A stretch of DNA of 64,000 bases from Candidatus Woesearchaeota archaeon (GTDB taxonomy: Archaea > Nanobdellota > Nanobdellia > Woesearchaeales > 0-14-0-80-44-23): contig JAPLZQ010000103.1 in assembly GCA_026394965.1 (NCBI GenBank), positions 13,028 to 77,027 on the forward strand, given 5' to 3'. The notes beneath the pieces were generated by a model. The model had not been told where the DNA came from and did no database searches. It was given only the letters and a program-made list of their open reading frames with translations. Both the position numbers and the translations under genes were made by a program. Each line of letters begins with the position of its first letter. Position 1 is the stretch's first letter. This document shows positions 8,597 to 41,453 of this stretch, in pieces.

Positions 8597-8875
8597 CTAA
8601 AGGTTGTTTTTTACCTTGTCAATATTCTCGGCAACATCCTGCCCCTTTTTTGTAAGGGTAAGAAGCTTTAGTCTGCCCTGCTTCTCGAAATTGATAAGCC
8701 CTGCCTTCTGCATCTCCTGCAGAATCTTCACAACATGTGAATAGGTGCAGTCAATCACTTTTGCAAGTGATGAGGCGTATATCTCAGACTTGGCATTCCT
8801 GAGCTCCACGAGCATCATTGCCGGCTTCTCTCTAAAAATCACATTAAAAATTTTCTTATTTTCCATAAAGTCCAC
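8597..8875 (-). CDS. winged helix-turn-helix transcriptional regulator (ArsR/TrmB-like)
   Basis: 92 aa. SSLAKVIDCTYSHVVKILQEMQKAGLINFEKQGRLKLLTLTKKG is a classic wHTH recognition helix plus wing. Confidence 0.5.
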   Translation of the reverse strand: MDFMENKKIFNVIFREKPAMMLVELRNAKSEIYASSLAKVIDCTYSHVVKILQEMQKAGLINFEKQGRLKLLTLTKKGQDVAENIDKVKNNL

Positions 8876-9022
8876 CCCGCACCCATCACCTCGGGTTAAA
8901 CCAGCGTGAAATCAAAAAAAACTCTTTATTTCCCCAAAAAAAATAATTATTAACTAATATTTAAATCTTTGTTTTTCCAATAGTTATTTAGAAATGGTTA
9001 TATTAAAGAGTTATTTCGGGCA

Positions 9023-11569: not shown

Positions 11570-14098
11570 ATGATTAAAAAAATTGAGATGCATAAGATGA
11601 GAAAAAGGGATTTATGGATGGCTGCTCCGTTAATCATATTGCTTCTCTTCATAGAACTTTCAATTGCAGAGTGCTCAAAAAGCGAGGGAACAGACCCAAA
11701 TTCAGAATATCCGCTGAGATTTTTTGCAGGAGTATGCACAGATAATATTGGGGCGCATCCTGACGAGATAATTGAAAAAGAAGGGAAGTATTACCTTGCA
11801 GAGCAGGTATGCAACATATCATCGGGCTTGTGCACTGACTATTTTGATATTAACGGAGCATATGGAGGAAGTGTAATAAGCGGGAGAAATGCCCTTTCCT
11901 GCAGCTATGATCTTCCTGAAAAAGGGCTCAGCGAAGAGGAGAAAAAGGGCTCTGCTGAAAACTTTACAGTAAAAATCGGAGAAATTGAGTATCAATCAGC
12001 AAGATGCTGCAGAAATGAAAATTCAGTATGCACTGATTCTTCTGAAAATCGCACTGATTTGAGGGCATGCTGCGCAGGATTTTCATGCATAAGCGGAAAA
12101 TGCGCAAAAATTCCTGAATGCATCCCTTCTTCTGAACTCTGCTCAGACGGGATTGACAATGACTGCGACGGAAAGGTTGACTGCGATGACACAGACTGCT
12201 TCAGCCAGGATGAAAAGCCCCTTTTCTGGGATGCGATAAAAGATACTGACTGCAAGAGCTCATTTGCAGAGGGCTTTCCAGGATGCAGGCTTGCGCAGTG
12301 CGGGGAATGCATGCCTGACGGAACAGGAACAAGATGCGAATGCAGCATATTAACTGCTGAAAAAAGGGAAGAAGGAAAAGAATATGTTCCTGCTGTAAAG
12401 AGCTGCATCCAGAAAAATGATAATTCATGCATAAAAAGCGAGTGCGCAAAACTTGGAGGGATGTGCCTGAACAAGTCAATACTCACAAACTGGAACTGTG
12501 GGGAAACAGAGGGGCTCTCTGAAGCAATTGGCGTTCCAGAGAGCGCATGCGGAAACTGCGAATTTGACTGCTGCATTCCAAAGCAGGAGCCATCATGCGG
12601 AGCTGAAAACCAGCCCTGCTGCATATACGGCTGCGGATTTTTCAATGAGGGATTAAGCTGCTGCGCAGACAATGTCTGCAGGAAATCCTGCACTGCGCCT
12701 TCAAGCGCTATTGAAAGAATAACAAAAAATGAAGAGGGCATAATAACTGTATATGCAACCTTGCTGGATGGAACATATGTCAGGGTAACAATAGCAAATG
12801 ACGGAAAGATAATATCTGCGGAAAGCGACGGAAACATTGAAGACACAGCAAAAGACGAGAGAGAAGGAAAATTCAAGGCAGATGAAAACTTGAAGAACAA
12901 CATTAAACTTCCTGAATCAGTAAAGGCATATGCAGAAAGGAATAATGTAACAAGAACTGATGAAAAGCCGAAAAGCGCAGAAAAGCGCTCATACCAGGAA
13001 CAGTGCTCAATTGACAATGAACCCAAATGCGATGATTCCGCAGGGCTTGTCTGCGTGAAAAAGGCGCTTTATGAGTGCGACTGCATGGCTGATTTCAAAT
13101 GGGATGATTCTGCAAAAAAATGCATTGAATCAGAGCCAGAAGAGGTATTTGACACATGCAGGTTCAGGAACCCGACTGGAATTGCAGTAAGGTCGAGAGA
13201 TGAGATATTTGTAACAGACACAGGAAACAACAGGATTATAGTTTTCAAAAGGCCTGTTGAAACTCTTGATGATGAAAAGCCATCTTTTGTCAAAAAATAC
13301 ATTTTTGGAAATCCTGACGGAAGCGCAGGGACAATTCCGGGAAAAGAGTTCAATGCTCCTACAGGAATATCAGTTGACCAGGGCGACTACAACAGGGTTT
13401 ATGTTTCTGACTCAAACAACAACAGGGTGCAGGTGCTTAACTACTGCGAGCCCTCAAAATTATACACTTTCATAAAGCAGGAAAGCTCTGCCGGAGGAAC
13501 ACAGTTCAGCTTCCCTGCAGGGATAGAGGTTTATGATGAGAATCTCTTCATAGCTGACCTTAAGAACAACAGGATTGTAGTATTAGGAAGCAGCAGGGAC
13601 AGGACTCTGGAATTTATCAGGCAATTCGGCTCGCACACTGAATCAGAGTTTGAAGAGGGAAAATTCAGGGAGCTTTCAGACATTACAGTTTATTCAAACG
13701 GGATATTTGCAGTGGACAGCCAGAGCAGAAGAATCCAGGTTTTTGACAGCCAGGAATATTTCTCAAGCGGCAATTTCAAGCTTAAAGGAACAATTGAATT
13801 TGAGGAAAGCGCAAGGATTTACGCAATTGCCACAAAGGGAAAATACATTTATGTAAGCGATTCAGTCAACGGAAAGGTATACCAGATAGACAGCGACGAT
13901 TACAGCAAAAGAAAGTCAATTGACGGCTTGGACACTCCAACAGGGCTTGATGTGATTGATGAGCCAAGAGACAAGGGCTTTTCCTACCTTTACATATCTG
14001 AATCAGGAAAGAACAGGATACTTGTCTACAACACAAAGTCCTATTTTGAGGAAGGGATAACAGAGCCGGCTGCGATAATCGGCCCTGTAATCTGCTGA
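11570..14098 (+). CDS. large secreted cysteine-rich protein with NHL-type beta-propeller repeats
   Basis: 842 aa. It has a signal/TM leader (LWMAAPLIILLLFIELSIA), an N-terminal half very rich in paired Cys including a CSDGIDNDCDGKVDCDDTDC calcium-binding-like module, and a C-terminal half with repeated NHL-like blades (DTGNNRIIVF, DSNNNRVQVL, DLKNNRIVVL, DSVNGKVYQI, ESGKNRILVY). Confidence 0.6.
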   Translation: MIKKIEMHKMRKRDLWMAAPLIILLLFIELSIAECSKSEGTDPNSEYPLRFFAGVCTDNIGAHPDEIIEKEGKYYLAEQVCNISSGLCTDYFDINGAYGGSVISGRNALSCSYDLPEKGLSEEEKKGSAENFTVKIGEIEYQSARCCRNENSVCTDSSENRTDLRACCAGFSCISGKCAKIPECIPSSELCSDGIDNDCDGKVDCDDTDCFSQDEKPLFWDAIKDTDCKSSFAEGFPGCRLAQCGECMPDGTGTRCECSILTAEKREEGKEYVPAVKSCIQKNDNSCIKSECAKLGGMCLNKSILTNWNCGETEGLSEAIGVPESACGNCEFDCCIPKQEPSCGAENQPCCIYGCGFFNEGLSCCADNVCRKSCTAPSSAIERITKNEEGIITVYATLLDGTYVRVTIANDGKIISAESDGNIEDTAKDEREGKFKADENLKNNIKLPESVKAYAERNNVTRTDEKPKSAEKRSYQEQCSIDNEPKCDDSAGLVCVKKALYECDCMADFKWDDSAKKCIESEPEEVFDTCRFRNPTGIAVRSRDEIFVTDTGNNRIIVFKRPVETLDDEKPSFVKKYIFGNPDGSAGTIPGKEFNAPTGISVDQGDYNRVYVSDSNNNRVQVLNYCEPSKLYTFIKQESSAGGTQFSFPAGIEVYDENLFIADLKNNRIVVLGSSRDRTLEFIRQFGSHTESEFEEGKFRELSDITVYSNGIFAVDSQSRRIQVFDSQEYFSSGNFKLKGTIEFEESARIYAIATKGKYIYVSDSVNGKVYQIDSDDYSKRKSIDGLDTPTGLDVIDEPRDKGFSYLYISESGKNRILVYNTKSYFEEGITEPAAIIGPVIC

Positions 14099-34840: not shown

Positions 34841-35325
34841 TTTGACGCACTGCCTTCCTGCCAAGAAATTCCAAGAGTCATAATTGAAGCAGCAGTGCGT
34901 GGAGAGATTTCATACTGCGGGTAAGTGTTCAGCCAGTCATGCTCTCTGTTTTCATTTCCCCATCTCATTTTTATCACTCGAAAAATTCTTTTAGATTTTT
35001 TCAGATACCCTAACTCCCTCGCTCTGATTTTGCAGGCATAGCCAGATTAAATAGAGAAGGATATTTTAATTTATCGGGAAAAAATAAAAAACGGCTTGGA
35101 AAAGAGAGAATTATCATAAAAATCCGCATAAACTTCAAAGTCCAAAGAATTACTGCATGGACTCGTTTTGAAAATATCCTGCCAATTTAAAAGCTATGAG
35201 GGATTAGTTACCATTATTTGATAGTGAAAAAACCGAAATATTTATAAACCCTTTCTGAATTGTTATCACTGCCAGTCAATAATAAACCGGCAATAATCTC
35301 ATTTAAAAGGATTGGGGGTAATAAC

Positions 35326-36837
35326 ATGTTAGGCATCGGACAGAAGGCGCAGGCAAGTAATTACCAGCAGCAGATAAGGGATATGGTTTCTTACATAAAT
35401 CAGCATTTCATAGCAGAGGCTCCAAAAGACATATACCTCAATGAATCGCAGGAGGGTATAGGCGGGCACACAAAAGGAGCCCTTCTTAAAGAGGCAATAG
35501 AGAGCGCAAAAAGCAAAAAGCCGATTTCAGAAAATATCCTTCCCATCACAACCACAATGCTTGCATTAAACTCTTGCATCGGAAACAACACCCTCATTTC
35601 AGGAGATGTTGGGACAGGAAAGACAAGGCTCGCAAGCGTAATAGGCTCAATGGTTTACCAAATCCCAGTTGAGATTTTTGACTGGAGAAAAATTGTCGGA
35701 AGCCCGGGAGCAACAGTCAATGACATTTATGCAACTCACGACATCGCTGAACTAAACAAGGGAATAGACATGGCATTTCTTTATCTCCCATTCCATATGC
35801 CTTACCTTATCATAGATGAACTCAACAGGTTCTCTGAACTTGAGCAGAACAGGATAAGAGAGGGCGTTGCAAATGATGTGTGGAACTATGCAAACCACTC
35901 ATGGAAGATAGACAAACAGGTTGTTGTATCAGCAATGAACCCCGATGTTTACGGAGGCACATTCTCCCTCAATGAAAATCTTGTGGACAACTACTCAATT
36001 CTCCTTTGGCCGCCAACATACAATCCAATAGCGCACCAGCATCTTGTAGAGCACGCCGATGAGAAGATAAAAGAGGGGCTGGGGCTTGAAGACAAGGTGG
36101 GCGAGTTTTTTGAATTCTACAAATCCCACAAGAACGATGCAAAAGCAATCAAAGATAAGATATCAGATCTTCAGCAGGCAACTGTCCAGGAATATGAAAG
36201 AAGGAAAATCCCGATAATCAAGAACGGATTTGTGTCAGAGATAAAAAAAGAGATTTCGGAAATAAGGTTTGCAGACGAGCCTCTTCTCTTCTTCTATTCA
36301 ACGCTTTCTGAGATATCCCAAAGCACAAAGTTCGGGGAAAACCGGTTTGAGGATCCAAGGTCAGATGACGAGCATGACAAGAGATACCTCTCAACAAAAG
36401 TGCTTAGGGGGCTTGCAGGAAGGTTCATGAAGGACTGGGAAATGATGTCAAAGGGGCTTGCATGGTACCTTGGAAGGGACAGAGTTACAGTTGAGGATGT
36501 GAAAACAGCATTTGTATTCACATCAGCAGCAAGGATAAACCCTGAAGAAAGATTCAAGCAGAAGGTATGGAACAGCCAAAGAAGCCTCCCCATAAGGCAC
36601 GCTATTGCAAAGCAGGTTATTGATGACTCATTCAAAAACTACACTGATTACACAAGCGCAGACAAGTCATTTGAGCATGTCAGAAAGGCAATACTCATGA
36701 TAACTGAGAATGAGCTTAATGCAGAAACAATCTCTGAAGCAAGAAAAGACCTGGAAATGAGCGACCATCCTGTTGCAAGGACAATTGAAGAAGCTCTCCT
36801 TTGCATGCAATATGAAAGCATGCAGAACAGAAAGTAA
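35326..36837 (+). CDS. MoxR-family AAA+ ATPase with a C-terminal extension of about 250 aa
   Basis: Walker A GDVGTGKT, Walker B LIIDELNRF (the MoxR-type DE(I/L)NR), sensor-1 VVSAMNP, and an ENLVDNYS segment in the position of the MoxR LDRF box. The likely start is the ATG at 35326, preceded by GGGGG. The ORF track starts at 35260. Confidence 0.7.
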   Translation: MLGIGQKAQASNYQQQIRDMVSYINQHFIAEAPKDIYLNESQEGIGGHTKGALLKEAIESAKSKKPISENILPITTTMLALNSCIGNNTLISGDVGTGKTRLASVIGSMVYQIPVEIFDWRKIVGSPGATVNDIYATHDIAELNKGIDMAFLYLPFHMPYLIIDELNRFSELEQNRIREGVANDVWNYANHSWKIDKQVVVSAMNPDVYGGTFSLNENLVDNYSILLWPPTYNPIAHQHLVEHADEKIKEGLGLEDKVGEFFEFYKSHKNDAKAIKDKISDLQQATVQEYERRKIPIIKNGFVSEIKKEISEIRFADEPLLFFYSTLSEISQSTKFGENRFEDPRSDDEHDKRYLSTKVLRGLAGRFMKDWEMMSKGLAWYLGRDRVTVEDVKTAFVFTSAARINPEERFKQKVWNSQRSLPIRHAIAKQVIDDSFKNYTDYTSADKSFEHVRKAILMITENELNAETISEARKDLEMSDHPVARTIEEALLCMQYESMQNRK

Positions 36838-36866
36838 GCGAATCACTTGGCTTGAGAATAAAAAAA

Positions 36867-38171
36867 ATGACTCTTTTTGACATGTCTGGAATAGAGAAAA
36901 GGGAAACAAAGGAAAACTCTCACGGATTAGAGGCGCTCCTCAATGCAGGAGACGCATTCTTCAATGAATTCGGGAGGTTATCCTGGAAAGAAATGATTGA
37001 CTTAATGAAAAAAAACAGAAATTATGCCAAAGAGTTCATAAAAGAAAAACTTAATGGGACAGAGTATTCTACAGAAGACATAGAGGACTATGTTATCATA
37101 AAAAGCGCAGAAGGAACAAGGAATTCAAGCTCCCTAAATTCAAATGTTCTTGGTGAATACTCGGGAAAAATTCTCAGCCTTCTCACAGAGGAAAATTCAA
37201 GTAAAGGAAAAAAAACAGTGATAAAAATTGACGGAAAAGGCGGGACTTTTGACCGTCTTTTTTACGGCGCAGAATTCTTTGATGAAGTATACATCTCAAA
37301 CATGAATGGAGAGGGAATATGCTCATCAATGGCGAACGGCAACATCCTTGCCCTAAACAACTGCAACGGGGGTAATACTGCAACATTCATCGGCGCAGGA
37401 AGCAACGGAGGCGTTAAGGCAGCAATACTGAACAATGCAAATAGCACGCACAATCTATTTTACGATGCTGCGTTTATAAACGGGCACATAGGGCTTGCCA
37501 TGCTCAACAACTCAACAGACAGTTACCATATAGAAATGGCCCTTTCTCTGATATACCCGGGAATAGAGCGGCTTGTAATACGAAACAAATTCAATCCCGA
37601 AAAATTCCAATTTGAAGATTTGCCTGTTGAGGATGGAAATGAAAATAAAGATTTCAAATTTTATGCTGATGAATATGCATTTGGAATAGAAAACGATTCA
37701 GAGATAATGGTTGCAAACAACGTCAGAAATAAAAGAGAATATGGCGGGCATCTATTCGGAAGGATGATTGAGCCAAACACTGAACTGCAGGAATTCCTGA
37801 AAAAAAACGGGATTGACAGAATGGCTGAGCTTTCAGACAAAATGGTGGATGCGGACTTAGACACTATTCAGGAAAATGCCAGAATGATTTACCATATTCA
37901 CAACGAAACTGCAACAAAAGAAATGCTCGAAGGAAGAGACAGATATTATCATACAATAAGACTTTTTGAAGAAATTGTTCCTGATGTTCTTGAAGAAATC
38001 CCCAGAAAACCAAAAGATGATTCAAATAATTATCCAAATCAGGAAAAAATCTATGAAAACGCCGGAGAAAAGATACAGAAGAAGGCAAGCAGGTGGATTA
38101 AAAACACATGGTATGACATAAGAGAAATATTTTTCATAAATCAGATAATGGACAAGATAAGGGGCAGATGA
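36867..38171 (+). CDS. paralog 1 of tandem GIEKREKKE-motif / Gly-Asn periodic-repeat family
   Basis: N-terminal MTLFDMSGIEKRETKE. Core KKTVIKIDGKGGTFDRLFYGAEFFDEVYISNMNGEGICSSMANGNILALNNCNGGNTATFIGAGSNGGVKAAILNNANS, then the C-terminal helix ELQEFLKKNGIDRMAELSDKMVDADLDTIQENARMIYHIHNE. The ORF track starts at a TTG at 36852. Confidence 0.6.
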   Translation: MTLFDMSGIEKRETKENSHGLEALLNAGDAFFNEFGRLSWKEMIDLMKKNRNYAKEFIKEKLNGTEYSTEDIEDYVIIKSAEGTRNSSSLNSNVLGEYSGKILSLLTEENSSKGKKTVIKIDGKGGTFDRLFYGAEFFDEVYISNMNGEGICSSMANGNILALNNCNGGNTATFIGAGSNGGVKAAILNNANSTHNLFYDAAFINGHIGLAMLNNSTDSYHIEMALSLIYPGIERLVIRNKFNPEKFQFEDLPVEDGNENKDFKFYADEYAFGIENDSEIMVANNVRNKREYGGHLFGRMIEPNTELQEFLKKNGIDRMAELSDKMVDADLDTIQENARMIYHIHNETATKEMLEGRDRYYHTIRLFEEIVPDVLEEIPRKPKDDSNNYPNQEKIYENAGEKIQKKASRWIKNTWYDIREIFFINQIMDKIRGR

Positions 38172-38186
38172 AATTCGGTGAAAAAA

Positions 38187-39566
38187 ATGGCATTCAGCGA
38201 TCTTACTGGAATAGAGAAAAGGGAGAAAAAGGAAATAATTTCTTCTGGATTAGAGATGCTTCTTCAGGCAGGAGACGCATTTCTAAACAAATTTTCCAGA
38301 CTATCAATTGAGGAACATGTGGATTTGGAAATGAACAACCACAGTTATGCTGAAGATTTTATAAAAGAAAAACTGAGAGGAGTTGAGTATTGCGCTGCAG
38401 ACATAGTGGACTATGTTATCATAAAAAGCAGGGAAAACGCACAGGAGCGCGGATATCTCGAGGAAGAAGATCTTGCCAGATATTCAGGGATAATTCTAAG
38501 CAGGCTTACAGAGAAAAATTCGAGGAAAGGAAAAAAAACAGTAATAAAAATTGACGGAAAAAATGGTACCTTTAACAATCTTTTTCGTGGAGCAGAATTC
38601 TTTGATGAGATATACATCTCCAACATGAACGGGGGATGGCTGTGCTCAGCAATGGCAAACGGCAATATTCTCGTGCTAAACAACTGCAGCAGCAACGGCG
38701 CTGCAGCATTCATAGGAATGGGAATGAACGGCGGAGTCAAGACAGCAATATTGAACAATGTAACCGAACCTTCATATAAATTAAGACAGGCATTTGGATC
38801 AGTCGATAAATCCGATAAATTTTTTAATATTGCAAATTTAGAGGGGCATGTCGGGCTTGCTATGATCAACAATTCGGCAAACGATGAGGTCATGCAGTCT
38901 TATGATATTGAAACGTTGCATTATCATTCAATCACACATTATTCAATAGCAGAACAGCTGGTAATACGCAACTTCCCTTATCAAAAAAACCCATTTAAAG
39001 AATGGCATCTTAAGAGAATAGGCGACTCTGCAAACTGCGGATTGTATTCTGAAAGCGGGGCGGTATTATTTTCTTACAACATATCCCCCTTACCAGTAAT
39101 CGACTGCTCGCAGGTAATTATTGAAAATAATTTCTATAATTTAGGATTATATACTAACCATCAATTCGGAGAAACAACAGACCCAACTGCTGAAATCCAG
39201 GAATTCCTGAGAAAAAACGGGATGGACAGAATCATTGCGCTTGCAGATGAAATGACTGAAGCAGACTTAGACACAATACAGAAAAACGCCAGACAGATTT
39301 ACCGGATTCACGAAGAAACCGCAACACCAAAAATGCTCAAAGGAAGAGAAAACTACTGTTTCTCAATGAGACGCTCCAAAGAAAATATTCCCGATGTTCT
39401 CGAAGAATTCAGTTCAAACATTCAGAATGGTTCAGATTCAGGAAAAATCTACGAAAGCGCTGAAGAAAAAATACAAAAGAAAAGAGACAGATGGATTAAA
39501 AACGCTCAGTATGACATAAAAAAGATGTCTTTCATAAAATGGGCAATAGACAAAATAAGAAGATAA
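38187..39566 (+). CDS. paralog 2 of tandem GIEKREKKE-motif family
   Basis: MAFSDLTGIEKREKKE..., the same core (KKTVIKIDGKNGTFNNLFRGAEFFDEIYISNMNGGWLCSAMANGNILVLNNCSSNGAAAFIGMGMNGGVKTAILNN), and C-terminal EIQEFLRKNGMDRIIALADEMTEADLDTIQKNARQIYRIHEE. About 45% identical to paralog 1. Confidence 0.6.
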   Translation: MAFSDLTGIEKREKKEIISSGLEMLLQAGDAFLNKFSRLSIEEHVDLEMNNHSYAEDFIKEKLRGVEYCAADIVDYVIIKSRENAQERGYLEEEDLARYSGIILSRLTEKNSRKGKKTVIKIDGKNGTFNNLFRGAEFFDEIYISNMNGGWLCSAMANGNILVLNNCSSNGAAAFIGMGMNGGVKTAILNNVTEPSYKLRQAFGSVDKSDKFFNIANLEGHVGLAMINNSANDEVMQSYDIETLHYHSITHYSIAEQLVIRNFPYQKNPFKEWHLKRIGDSANCGLYSESGAVLFSYNISPLPVIDCSQVIIENNFYNLGLYTNHQFGETTDPTAEIQEFLRKNGMDRIIALADEMTEADLDTIQKNARQIYRIHEETATPKMLKGRENYCFSMRRSKENIPDVLEEFSSNIQNGSDSGKIYESAEEKIQKKRDRWIKNAQYDIKKMSFIKWAIDKIRR

Positions 39567-39581
39567 AATTCGGTGAAAAAA

Positions 39582-41453
39582 ATGGCAGAAGACAAAAAGC
39601 AGGGCGCGGAAGACAAAAAGCTTGAGGAAATCATAAAGAAATGCTTTGAGGAGACAAAGGACCGGTATCTCAGACCTCCGATAAGCGGACCTCTGATAGT
39701 TGACTCTGAAATTGAAATGAACGGCTTGGGAACAGCATTTCTGAACTTCCTTGACTTATCCATTGGAATAAATGCCCCTTTTCTTAAAAAAATGGCAGGA
39801 TATGCCAATGGTGATATTGAAAAGATGGCAAAGGGAATTTTCACCCACGAAATCGGGCATTATATGTTTTTTCCCCAGAATGTAAGCCTTTCACTTTACC
39901 TCTCATATGAGGCAGAGGAGAATTTCAAGGAAAACAGCGCAATAATATACGCCCTTTTCGCTGACTATGTCAACAATTCTCTCATCTATTACCAGCAGGT
40001 TGAGGCAGAGAGTTTGAAAGGGCTACTTGCAAGCTCATATCTCGACAAAAAAAACAGGGCAACAAACAGCGCAATGGCCTTAAGCTACGGAAAAAGGATG
40101 AAAGAGGAATTCTCCGTTGACCTAAGCGGCTTTGAAGAGGAAACCATGAAAAAAATAATCAAGGCAGCAGACGAGATTGATTCAGTAACAGTTAGCATGA
40201 GCAGGAACTACAACCTGCAGTATTCCCAACTCCGAAGATTCGGAGAGGCAATACTTCCCCTTCTTAATATTGACAGGCAAAAAATGAAGGAGAATCAGAA
40301 GAATAACTGCGACAAAAATTGCCAAAACAACGGGGGGCAGGGTGAAAACCCTTGCAATTGCCCTTCTGGCGGGGGCTCAAGAATAATAACCAAGGAAGAT
40401 TTTGACAAGCTTCCCGCTGAAGATAAGCAGAAGATAAAGCAGGCAATAAGGGAAATGATAAAGCACATGGACAAGAAGAAATATGAAAAAATAAAGGAGC
40501 ATTTCCTTGGAAAAGAGAGCGCTAAGAAAGACAGGGCTCCTGGAATCGGAACAGGCATAGAAAATGTGGAATCTGCTGAAGATAAAACAACTGAGTACTA
40601 CAAGGAGCTTGCAGCAGAATACGGGATATTCATAAGGCCCAAGAAAACAAGAACCTTATCCTCAACAAAGCAGGTTTTCGGAAAAGAGGACTTCAAGATG
40701 GACAGCCCGCCGATAGGGATAGACACAAGATACTCCGGCGGAAAAATACTTCCGGGGCTTACAAAGAAAATCAGGATAGAGTCAATACCTTACCTAAAAA
40801 ACTCACAGTCGCTCCCTTCTCTCATAATATACAAGGACGCATCAGGAAGCATGCCTAATCCCCAGCAAGAGACATGCTATGCAACCCTTGCCGGAACAAT
40901 ATTCATAATGAGCTATTTTCGGAGCGGATGCAATGTGGGAGTTTCCCTGTTTGACTCGGAAATGACAGACATATTCAGAAGCGAGGATGAGGATGAGCTG
41001 ATAAAGATGATTTGCAGCTACAAGGGCGGCGGAACATCAATTGATTTGGACAGGTTAAAAAAAGACATAGCAGAATCAAAATCAGAGATTCCAATAGACC
41101 TGAAGAAAATAAATGAGGAAGAAATCAGGAAAAACCCGCTTTTCAGGAAATACCTGAACAAAAACGGAAGGATAAGCCTTCAGGAGCTCACAAGCCAGAG
41201 CTATGTTGACCTGATGATAATAACAGACGGCGGAATCATGAATGTTGATGAGCTGATTGACTTCATGAAAAACAACGAGAAATACCGCCCTACAATAATA
41301 CACACCGGCACATTCCAGCTAGATATACCGGGATATGACCAGCAGCACACCTGCTCTTATGGGGGAATAACCGTGTTCAAGGCGGACTCAAAAGAGGACC
41401 TTGTGAGAATATCGCAGGACATAATTGAAAAGAACCTTATTTCAGGCAACTAA
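39582..41453 (+). CDS. von Willebrand factor A (vWA) domain protein with complete MIDAS, fused to an N-terminal HExxH zincin-like region and a Cys-rich linker
   Basis: C-terminal vWA with MIDAS residues all present: DASGS in IIYKDASGSM, the Thr in KGGGTS, and the Asp in LMIITDGG. The N-terminal region contains FTHEIGHYMFF (HExxH). The linker is CDKNCQNNGGQGENPCNCPSGGG. The start ATG at 39582 shares the upstream 22 bp AAATTCGGTGAAAAAAATGGCA with paralog 2. Confidence 0.65.
   Translation: MAEDKKQGAEDKKLEEIIKKCFEETKDRYLRPPISGPLIVDSEIEMNGLGTAFLNFLDLSIGINAPFLKKMAGYANGDIEKMAKGIFTHEIGHYMFFPQNVSLSLYLSYEAEENFKENSAIIYALFADYVNNSLIYYQQVEAESLKGLLASSYLDKKNRATNSAMALSYGKRMKEEFSVDLSGFEEETMKKIIKAADEIDSVTVSMSRNYNLQYSQLRRFGEAILPLLNIDRQKMKENQKNNCDKNCQNNGGQGENPCNCPSGGGSRIITKEDFDKLPAEDKQKIKQAIREMIKHMDKKKYEKIKEHFLGKESAKKDRAPGIGTGIENVESAEDKTTEYYKELAAEYGIFIRPKKTRTLSSTKQVFGKEDFKMDSPPIGIDTRYSGGKILPGLTKKIRIESIPYLKNSQSLPSLIIYKDASGSMPNPQQETCYATLAGTIFIMSYFRSGCNVGVSLFDSEMTDIFRSEDEDELIKMICSYKGGGTSIDLDRLKKDIAESKSEIPIDLKKINEEEIRKNPLFRKYLNKNGRISLQELTSQSYVDLMIITDGGIMNVDELIDFMKNNEKYRPTIIHTGTFQLDIPGYDQQHTCSYGGITVFKADSKEDLVRISQDIIEKNLISGN

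Follow-up and report, generated by a model that had tools for sequence, protein, structure and literature searches.

A window of 64 kb (64,000 nucleotides, the whole stretch of DNA that was analysed) from a metagenome-assembled genome (MAG) of a Candidatus Woesearchaeota archaeon contains an operon for a MoxR-like AAA+ ATPase, a protein with a vWA domain and nine paralogous proteins, designated P1 to P9 (Table 1). The 22-mer AAATTCGGTGAAAAAAATGGCA is present in exactly two copies in this window, both on the forward strand, one leading from P1 into P2 and the other from P2 into the vWA gene. These copies are probably the right-hand ends of an old tandem duplication of a P gene upstream of a resident vWA gene. 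The duplicated unit would have extended from one P gene and its stop codon through a 15-nt spacer, with the ribosome-binding site of the next gene, to the first two codons of that next gene.

The original prediction, which was made from the sequence alone, had described an identical 22-bp junction before P2 and the vWA gene. The exact match at both gene junctions was confirmed, but the coordinates (38172-38193 and 39567-39588) were one base too high. The junction had furthermore been interpreted as the trace of an insertion of the vWA gene at a paralog 5' junction. Recombination at such a junction is retained here, but the direction is probably the reverse. Insertion into an already existing array is not supported in view of three results: the 22-mer is the 3' end of the P1/P2 homology, P1 and P2 are the closest paralogs, and the core ATPase-(P)-vWA also occurs in bacteria and Archaeoglobus.

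Position and anatomy of the junction repeat

The first base of the 22-mer is the final base of a stop codon (TGA of P1, 38169-38171; TAA of P2, 39564-39566). It is followed by the spacer AATTCGGTGAAAAAA, the ATG of the downstream gene at bases 17-19 (P2 at 38187; vWA gene at 39582) and the second codon, GCA, which completes the repeat. No further copy with up to three mismatches was found in the window, and none of 100 dinucleotide-preserving shuffles contained a match, so that the repetition is far beyond random chance. The similarity extends to the left of the 22-mer, with 27 of 31 positions identical between 38164-38194 and 39559-39589 (repeat family D18). The preceding 15-20 nt, which had correctly been described as similar, represent homologous C-terminal codons (DKIRGR and DKIRR, each followed by the stop).

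Both spacers carry a Shine-Dalgarno-like GGTGA motif. Motifs of the GGTG/GGTGA type were found before many other genes of the window, and GGTGAAAAAAATG is present at the two junction sites only. Among the internal genes of the operon, P2, the vWA gene, P3 and P4 are preceded by GGTGA/GTGA motifs.

P1, P2 and the vWA gene (36867-41453) share one reading frame, interrupted ahead of P2 and of the vWA gene only by one stop codon (TGA and TAA, respectively), which five sense codons (NSVKK) follow up to the ATG. At both junctions, 18 nt lie between the beginning of the stop codon and the following ATG, and the common frame probably exists because one 15-nt spacer was duplicated. Stop-codon readthrough or a gene fusion was also considered and rejected, as the frame is explained by the duplicated spacer and as genes in other loci overlap or are out of frame at their junctions. 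Such junctions elsewhere also make it very unlikely that the 22-mer is a dedicated cis-element, be it the site of a regulator or small RNA or a readthrough or reinitiation signal linking P1, P2 and the vWA gene. Its perfect conservation, the shared frame and the constant distance would be in line with such an element, but the frame follows automatically from the duplication of one spacer, and a third copy is missing from the window. In addition, no RNA structure was predicted at the junctions (z-scores of 0.40 and 0.26 for 100-nt folds around each of them), and Rfam showed no family in the junction region, tRNAs being the sole Rfam matches in the window.

The repeat as the probable end of a tandem duplication

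The nucleotide alignment of P1 with its flanks to P2 with its flanks is unbroken from an A-run and ATG through the gene body and the stop codon into the 22-mer, and it terminates directly after ATGGCA. Identity is 68% across 1308 ungapped columns and about 70% in the last 90 aligned columns preceding the 22-mer. Beyond these limits it drops to 37% in the 60 nt past ATGGCA (P2 vs vWA gene) and to 27% in the 45 nt upstream of P1 and P2. The 22-mer lies where the collinearity of P1 and P2 ends and thus closes a tandem duplication unit on the right; the distance between its copies (1395 nt) equals the length of this unit (about 1.4 kb). The end of the first unit copy and the start of the second overlap in AAAAAA-ATG-GCA, which is the pattern of a microhomology breakpoint.

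P1 and P2 are sister paralogs in a distance (neighbour-joining) tree without support values and share about 55-57% of their amino acids, compared to 24-35% for other pairs. The synonymous divergence between them (dS 0.87; dN 0.34; dN/dS 0.39), with fourfold degenerate sites only 49% identical, shows that the duplication is old. In view of the continuity of the P1/P2 alignment, the one-sided loss of homology, the sister status and the existence of core loci with a single P gene, a tandem duplication that included the spacer is the economical reading.

For the sequence of events, the mechanism of the crossover and the cause of the junction's conservation, we infer the following. An ancestral order ATPase-P-spacer-vWA would have been altered by unequal crossover or replication slippage between the P start region AAAAAAAATG and the vWA start region AAAAAAATGGCA, both of which are A-rich. 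The outcome would be ATPase-P1-spacer-P2-spacer-vWA, in which P2 took over the upstream spacer of the vWA gene. The copies would then have diverged to their present identity, and the junction would have been kept as the translation-initiation region of the downstream gene (GGTGA, unstructured A-rich spacer, ATG). Short gene-conversion tracts possibly also homogenise the 5' junctions of the paralogs.

A second exact 22-nt run of P1 and P2, GGACTATGTTATCATAAAAAGC, is located inside the genes (37085/38408) and encodes the conserved motif DYVIIKS; the 22-mer is therefore not exceptional for this pair of genes. The junction is a constraint island, comparable to this coding motif and not beyond it. 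An origin of the run by pure chance from the identity of the paralogs was rejected; under a model of independent, identically distributed sites at 68% identity, the probability of any run of at least 22 nt is 0.08, and the run was taken as a constraint island.

Several points weigh against the duplication as the complete explanation. At the given synonymous divergence, a neutral 15-nt spacer would not stay perfect. Constraint by ribosome binding covers GGTGA, the spacing and the ATG, not AAATTC, so that an extra process, conversion or later exchange, would be needed. The GCA codon is possibly native to the P genes, other P starts being ATGCCA or ATGCCG, which leaves the exact crossover point uncertain. 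Furthermore, the only close relative (L089, see below) ends about 50 nt before the relevant junction, which leaves the direction of the event probable rather than proven. Finally, P genes of the same genome cluster on both sides of the vWA gene, and copies must therefore cross this gene somehow.

Some of these points lead to the possibility that the identity of the junctions results mainly from recent short-tract gene conversion, i.e. concerted evolution, which would say nothing on the original event. This reading overlaps with the duplication favoured here, and as the main cause we consider it doubtful. In its favour, the 22-mer is completely identical amid flanks of about 70% identity in spite of the high dS, unambiguous tracts occur at paralog 5' ends in two related loci (L009 with 100 exact nt, and L020), and a related junction in the locus L089 differs (TGTGAAAAAAAATGGCA), which indicates that the junction sequence is not absolutely constrained. 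On the other hand, a tract of 22-31 nt would be very short and coincides exactly with the translation-initiation signals, and the equally long run in the DYVIIKS motif demonstrates that constraint alone can yield such runs. Short-tract conversion remains a live contributor to the identity of the junctions of the duplicated unit.

Recombination and gene conversion in related loci

Related loci, referred to by L numbers, were collected by a word-indexed search for vWA homologues (27 proteins, mostly from Woesearchaeota and Nanoarchaeota) and by a degenerate-pattern scan with one genome per species (80 loci). The loci were annotated with profiles built from P1-P9, the ATPase and the vWA protein of the window.

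In these loci, paralog 5' ends recombine and convert. The P genes flanking the vWA gene in L009 have an exact 5' tract of 100 nt, from -3 to +97 (8779-8878 and 11790-11889), against a background of 60-90% identity, which is a clear gene conversion across the vWA gene. In L020, the P starts on either side of the vWA gene are identical over 33 nt. In L018 (ATPase-P-P-vWA), the 40 nt before the second P gene and before the vWA gene are nearly identical, both ending with GAGATGAAATG. The vWA gene of L015 begins with ATGGTACAACAACAA and resembles the P starts ATGGTACAACACATG of this locus; its start ATGGTACAACA is a copy of P starts.

The only close relative of the window operon is L089 (JGI 3300063007), in which two P genes follow the ATPase gene. 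The ATPases are 95% identical in protein sequence (dS 0.52; dN/dS 0.04). The search for ATPase homologues gave no full-length relative closer than 58%. P1 of the window is a mosaic of the two P genes of L089, since residues 1-84 correspond to the first (dS 0.42) and the part from residue 85 to the end corresponds to the second (dS 0.49); L089 1-3808 was compared with window positions 35625-38117. As both parts show species-level dS, neighbouring paralogs have undergone an unequal crossover in one lineage after the split. The second P gene of L089 begins with GTGAAAAAAAATGGCATTCAGCGATCTTA, as P2 does. The P1/P2 duplication is older than the split between the window and L089. Between these two loci, dN/dS of the P genes is 0.29-0.33, compared to 0.04 for the ATPase. 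In the neighbour-joining tree, P genes group by genome and not by position, which fits lineage-specific expansion, concerted evolution, or both.

The relative also bears on the question whether the array is an assembly artefact in which two strain variants of a single P gene were joined via the shared junction. Such an artefact is hardly conceivable. The exact locus is carried by one assembly only, the exact vWA protein of the window (with ATG or GTG start) is absent from the contig index, and a scan of metagenome contigs for the 22-mer returned one contig, an unrelated chance match without homology to the window. These findings would be compatible with an artefact, but the divergence of the P1 and P2 proteins is far past strain variation, with the neighbouring ATPase being 95% identical between samples. 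The upstream context of P2 is also unlike that of P1, so that no de Bruijn path of k ≥ 21 could have joined the copies. Furthermore, the independent Joint Genome Institute (JGI) assembly of L089 also has two tandem copies, the second with a P2-type start, and the multi-copy arrays of L093 and L094 recur at 99.7% identity in two independent assemblies.

Gene order in related loci

In dozens of loci, the ATPase, P and vWA genes occur together on the same strand, and this linked set is a conserved core. This agrees with the earlier proposal that array and vWA gene form one unit. Wherever a contig contains the ATPase as well as the vWA gene, the two are neighbours, as in most related loci, or are separated by P genes only. 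The order ATPase-P-vWA, with one P gene before the vWA gene, was found in Syntrophobacteria and Desulfobacterales (L034-36, L038, L043, L044, L046, L052, L056, L060, L061 and L063). In the same groups, L047, L051 and L064 have the order ATPase-vWA-P with one P gene after the vWA gene, and in Archaeoglobus one or two P genes follow the vWA gene (L037, L039, L042, L054 and L057). Distant bacterial relatives possess a bare ATPase-vWA pair. In L035 (1547-5150) and similar loci, a MoxR-like ATPase, a GXGXG protein and an HExxH-vWA protein are encoded together, P being single-copy outside DPANN.

Tandem P arrays were detected in DPANN lineages (L007, L010, L011, L015, L016, L028, L030 and others, in addition to the window). 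When the position of the vWA gene was compared across loci, as had been suggested with the original prediction, it proved to vary, with 0 to 13 P genes upstream. In DPANN, no P gene is located between the ATPase and vWA genes in L012, L014 and L016, one in L001/L009, L003/L013 and L021, two in the window and L018, at least three in L011, four in L030, at least eight in L015, at least nine in L010, and 13 in L007. The latter locus (1621-21740) is one operon of 13 short paralogs of the GXGXG type (about 200 amino acids), the vWA gene and at least 15 more paralogs. Nearly all of these paralogs overlap by 13 nt, and almost all begin with ATGGCCGAGATAA.

These gene orders bear on the question how the vWA gene received the junction. 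If the junction had first been a boundary between two paralogs, the vWA gene could have obtained it by insertion, or by a crossover that deleted a paralog body and fused spacer and ATGGCA to the vWA gene. This is unlikely, even if several observations would fit. The start ATGGCATTCAGCGATCTTA, together with GTGAAAAAAA before it, recurs at an internal paralog of L089 and thus represents a paralog-type start predating the split of the genomes. The N-terminal extension of the vWA protein of the window is unusually long in comparison to its homologues and is locally duplicated (MAEDKKQGAEDKK before the conserved LEEII), crossovers of the deletion type occur in the P family, as the P1 mosaic shows, and P genes flanking the vWA gene on both sides cluster by genome. 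Nevertheless, such a course requires at least one event more than a simple tandem duplication, and the sequence past ATGGCA in the vWA gene has no trace of a truncated paralog (next 60 nt only 37% identical to P2). Moreover, the ATPase-vWA linkage, with or without one P gene, is widespread in the 94 related loci and probably ancestral, which favours duplication of a P gene next to a resident vWA gene. The single-P loci with the order ATPase-P-vWA (L001, L003, L021 and L035) are distant, and their junction sequences differ from that of the window.

Proteins encoded by the operon

The vWA protein consists of an N-terminal helical domain with an HExxH motif and a C-terminal vWA domain with a metal ion-dependent adhesion site (MIDAS). 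H89, E90 and H93 of the HExxH motif are invariant across 21 homologues spanning 22-49% identity, as are D419, S421, T485 and D549 of the MIDAS motif (DxSGS...T...D). VWA_2 was matched in 6 of the 21 family members. In Foldseek, the C-terminal domain of the AlphaFold model (pLDDT 81) matched vWF-A3, TRAP, integrin I domains and NorD of NorQD; the matches cover the vWA part, with none for the N-terminal domain. The latter domain showed no significant Pfam and no PDB profile match and thus matched no known peptidase family. Faint hints are one match to Peptidase_Mx and one to Peptidase_M48 on a relative from Microbacterium. Immediately after ATGGCA, an imperfect 21-nt tandem duplication is present in the vWA gene (39585-39626; GCAGAAGACAAAAAGCAGGGC, then GCGGAAGACAAAAAGCTTGAG), encoding AEDKKQG/AEDKKLE. 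The closest vWA homologues (46-47% identical) are without the N-terminal extension derived from it.

The ATPase of the window remained below the gathering thresholds of Pfam (AAA_3 19.4 bits vs 27; AAA_lid_2 22.2 vs 22.7) and had no sequence match in the PDB. Many of its homologues carry a precomputed PF07726 (AAA_3) assignment, and JGI names one of them a MoxR-like ATPase. PADLOC gave nothing for the operon except a marginal TRIP13 match on the ATPase.

For the P proteins and the vWA protein of the window, Pfam and NCBIfam revealed nothing significant, and profile and sequence searches of the PDB with the operon proteins gave no significant match. In a Pfam scan that covered P1-P7 and P9, no match to GXGXG (PF01493) or to any other family was obtained, P5 having a weak unrelated match only. 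An iterated profile links the P genes of the window to proteins of L035 and L007, which reach 36.7 and 34.7 bits (threshold 32.5). In the model of P2, a disordered tail at the N-terminus precedes a helical domain and the rungs of a beta-helix, and the P proteins were classified as right-handed beta-helices; a Foldseek comparison of the P2 model to the PDB gave no match with E <0.3.

Four regions can be distinguished in the P proteins. The first is a conserved N-terminal tail, M-x-x-x-[DE]-L-x-G-I-E-K-R-E, which is predicted to be disordered. It is followed by a helical domain and by the core K-T-V-I-K-I-D-G-x-G-x-x-F-x-Y-L-F-x-x-A-x-x-F-D-E-V-Y-I-S-N with a variable number of glycine-rich rungs, and a helical segment forms the C-terminus. 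The peptide [FL]-[DE]-x-L-x-G-I-[EQ]-K-[ER]-R-[ED] is located at or near the N-terminus across the P family of 344 clusters (P1-P9, P0031-P0100), some members of which are extended N-terminally. This peptide is a candidate docking or cleavage handle. By analogy to MoxR-vWA pairs such as NorQ/NorD and CbbQ/CbbO, the vWA protein might bridge the ATPase to the P proteins, and the acidic N-terminal tail of the latter might serve as a ligand of the MIDAS or as a substrate of the HExxH domain. Except for the P proteins themselves, no candidate client gene is present near the operon.

Relation to known systems

Within this rapidly rearranging archaeal operon, the junction is an ordinary boundary of a tandem duplication. 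It agrees with tandem duplication at short homology (by unequal crossing-over or slippage), followed by birth-and-death and concerted evolution of a multigene array, in the spacing that equals the unit length, the one-sided collinearity, the microhomology overlap and the sister paralogs, as well as in the mosaic genes and conversion tracts of related loci. Nothing essential differs, and the single unusual point is that the non-coding junction has changed less than the synonymous sites of the two gene copies. The junction documents growth of the array through unequal recombination at A-rich start regions, by which the ribosome-binding spacer was carried along. In practical terms, it supplies the unit boundaries and evidence for a genuine array rather than an artefact of assembly.

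The operon is more interesting than the junction itself. MoxR-class AAA+ ATPases and vWA proteins form chaperone pairs such as NorQ/NorD, CbbQ/CbbO, RavA/ViaA and CoxD/CoxE. The operon described here resembles these pairs in its adjacent and co-oriented ATPase and vWA genes, the complete MIDAS, the occurrence of NorD among the best structural matches of the vWA model, and the AAA_3 domain of the ATPase homologues. It departs from them in the helical N-terminal domain of the vWA protein, in which HExxH is invariant, in the lack of a client enzyme gene nearby, and in a third conserved partner, a GXGXG-like beta-helix protein with 2 to at least 28 tandem copies in DPANN. Proteins of the DUF2201/COG3864 type (predicted metal-dependent peptidase plus VWA-like domain) also pair with MoxR ATPases. 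They share with the vWA protein an N-terminal HExxH followed by a C-terminal vWA-like domain and the location beside a MoxR-like ATPase, but no Pfam model of this or any other peptidase family matched the vWA protein or its close relatives at E ≤ 0.05.

With the GXGXG domain (PF01493), which is known from the C-terminal beta-helix of glutamate synthase and from subunit C of formylmethanofuran dehydrogenase, the P proteins share repeated rungs rich in glycine. The Pfam threshold is passed by homologues in the equivalent position in L035 and L007, whereas the scanned P proteins of the window have no Pfam match. The P proteins also possess parts that do not belong to the GXGXG domain, namely the conserved disordered tail with x-[DE]-L-x-G-I-E-K-R-E and helical regions towards both ends, a domain N-terminally and a segment C-terminally.

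In the literature searched, no paper was found that combines GXGXG with MoxR or DUF2201 with MoxR, and a survey of vWA-MoxR systems (eLife 2020) contains no mention of GXGXG, beta-helix partners or DPANN. The one paper returned for MoxR and vWA in DPANN concerns diversity-generating retroelements in multicellular bacteria. The set of ATPase, vWA and P genes is likewise described by no PADLOC model and by no paper in this literature. The operon apparently represents a MoxR-vWA system not described before, whose beta-helix partner has been amplified in DPANN.

Tentatively, and as one possibility among others, these observations might be combined as follows. The junction would be the footprint of a fast-diversifying array within a three-component system of a MoxR-like ATPase, an HExxH-vWA protein acting as adaptor or peptidase, and GXGXG-like P proteins with a G-I-E-K-R-E tail. 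The P component would be present in one copy in Syntrophobacteria, Desulfobacterales and Archaeoglobus (one or two in the latter). In DPANN it would have been amplified to 2 to at least 28 copies and turned over by unequal crossing-over and conversion of the 5' ends, so that, in organisms whose genomes measure about 1 Mb, the array might resemble a contingency locus or variation locus. The acidic tail of the P proteins might be the handle for the MIDAS site of the vWA protein or the site at which the HExxH domain cuts.

In a DPANN archaeon with a tiny genome, 13 kb are devoted to one operon that encodes nine divergent beta-helix paralogs in addition to an ATPase and a vWA protein, and a relative devotes more than 20 kb to at least 28 P copies. 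With regard to dN/dS, the P paralogs evolve at about eight times the rate of the ATPase next to them, and they are reshuffled between closely related genomes. Should the P proteins act as clients or variable partners of a machine of MoxR and vWA proteins, the operon would provide a new model for substrate choice in chaperone pairs and, in episymbiotic archaea, could be a candidate for a function in interaction or conflict with the host.

Operon map and minor observations

All genes of the operon are located on the forward strand, with short or overlapping junctions (Table 1; locus tags NTV63_04785 to NTV63_04800, on an 84-kb contig of the MAG). P3 to P9 are 24-35% identical among themselves and to P1/P2. 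The operon is flanked by the genes for topoisomerase VI subunits B and A upstream and by a HAD hydrolase gene and two tRNA genes downstream.

Table 1. Positions of genes, duplication units and junction elements in the window.
Feature	Position	Strand	Remark
MoxR-like AAA+ ATPase	35326-36837	+	first gene of the operon; weak AAA_3 and AAA_lid_2 matches
P1	36867-38171	+	434 aa; open reading frame; sister of P2
P2	38187-39566	+	459 aa; open reading frame; sister of P1
vWA gene	39582-41453	+	623 aa; N-terminal helical HExxH domain, C-terminal vWA domain with MIDAS
P3	41483-42394	+	open reading frame; repeat families D1-D9
P4	42430-43323	+	open reading frame; repeat families D1-D9
P5	43310-44428	+	open reading frame; repeat families D1-D9
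P6	44401-45321	+	open reading frame; repeat families D1-D9
P7	45311-46417	+	open reading frame; repeat families D1-D9
P8	46407-47480	+	open reading frame; repeat families D1-D9
P9	47470-48549	+	open reading frame; repeat families D1-D9
Duplication unit, copy 1	~36860-38192	+	P1 through junction copy 1
Duplication unit, copy 2	~38181-39587	+	P2 through junction copy 2
A-run and ATG at the P1 start, AAAAAAAATG	36860-36869	+	microhomology partner of the A-run and ATG within the junction
Junction copy 1	38171-38192	+	last base of P1 stop, 15-nt spacer, ATGGCA of P2; end of duplication unit copy 1
Junction copy 2	39566-39587	+	last base of P2 stop, same 15-nt spacer, ATGGCA of the vWA gene
GGTGA, Shine-Dalgarno-like	38177-38181	+	5 nt before the ATG of P2
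GGTGA, Shine-Dalgarno-like	39572-39576	+	5 nt before the ATG of the vWA gene

Upstream of the ATPase gene (35296-35325), a TTTAAAA box is located about 24 nt before the ATG, which suggests a TATA box and a leaderless first gene. At 2316-2413 of the window, on the reverse strand, Rfam matched a tRNA over 98 nt (48 bits) that was not called by ARAGORN; this may be an intron-containing archaeal tRNA.

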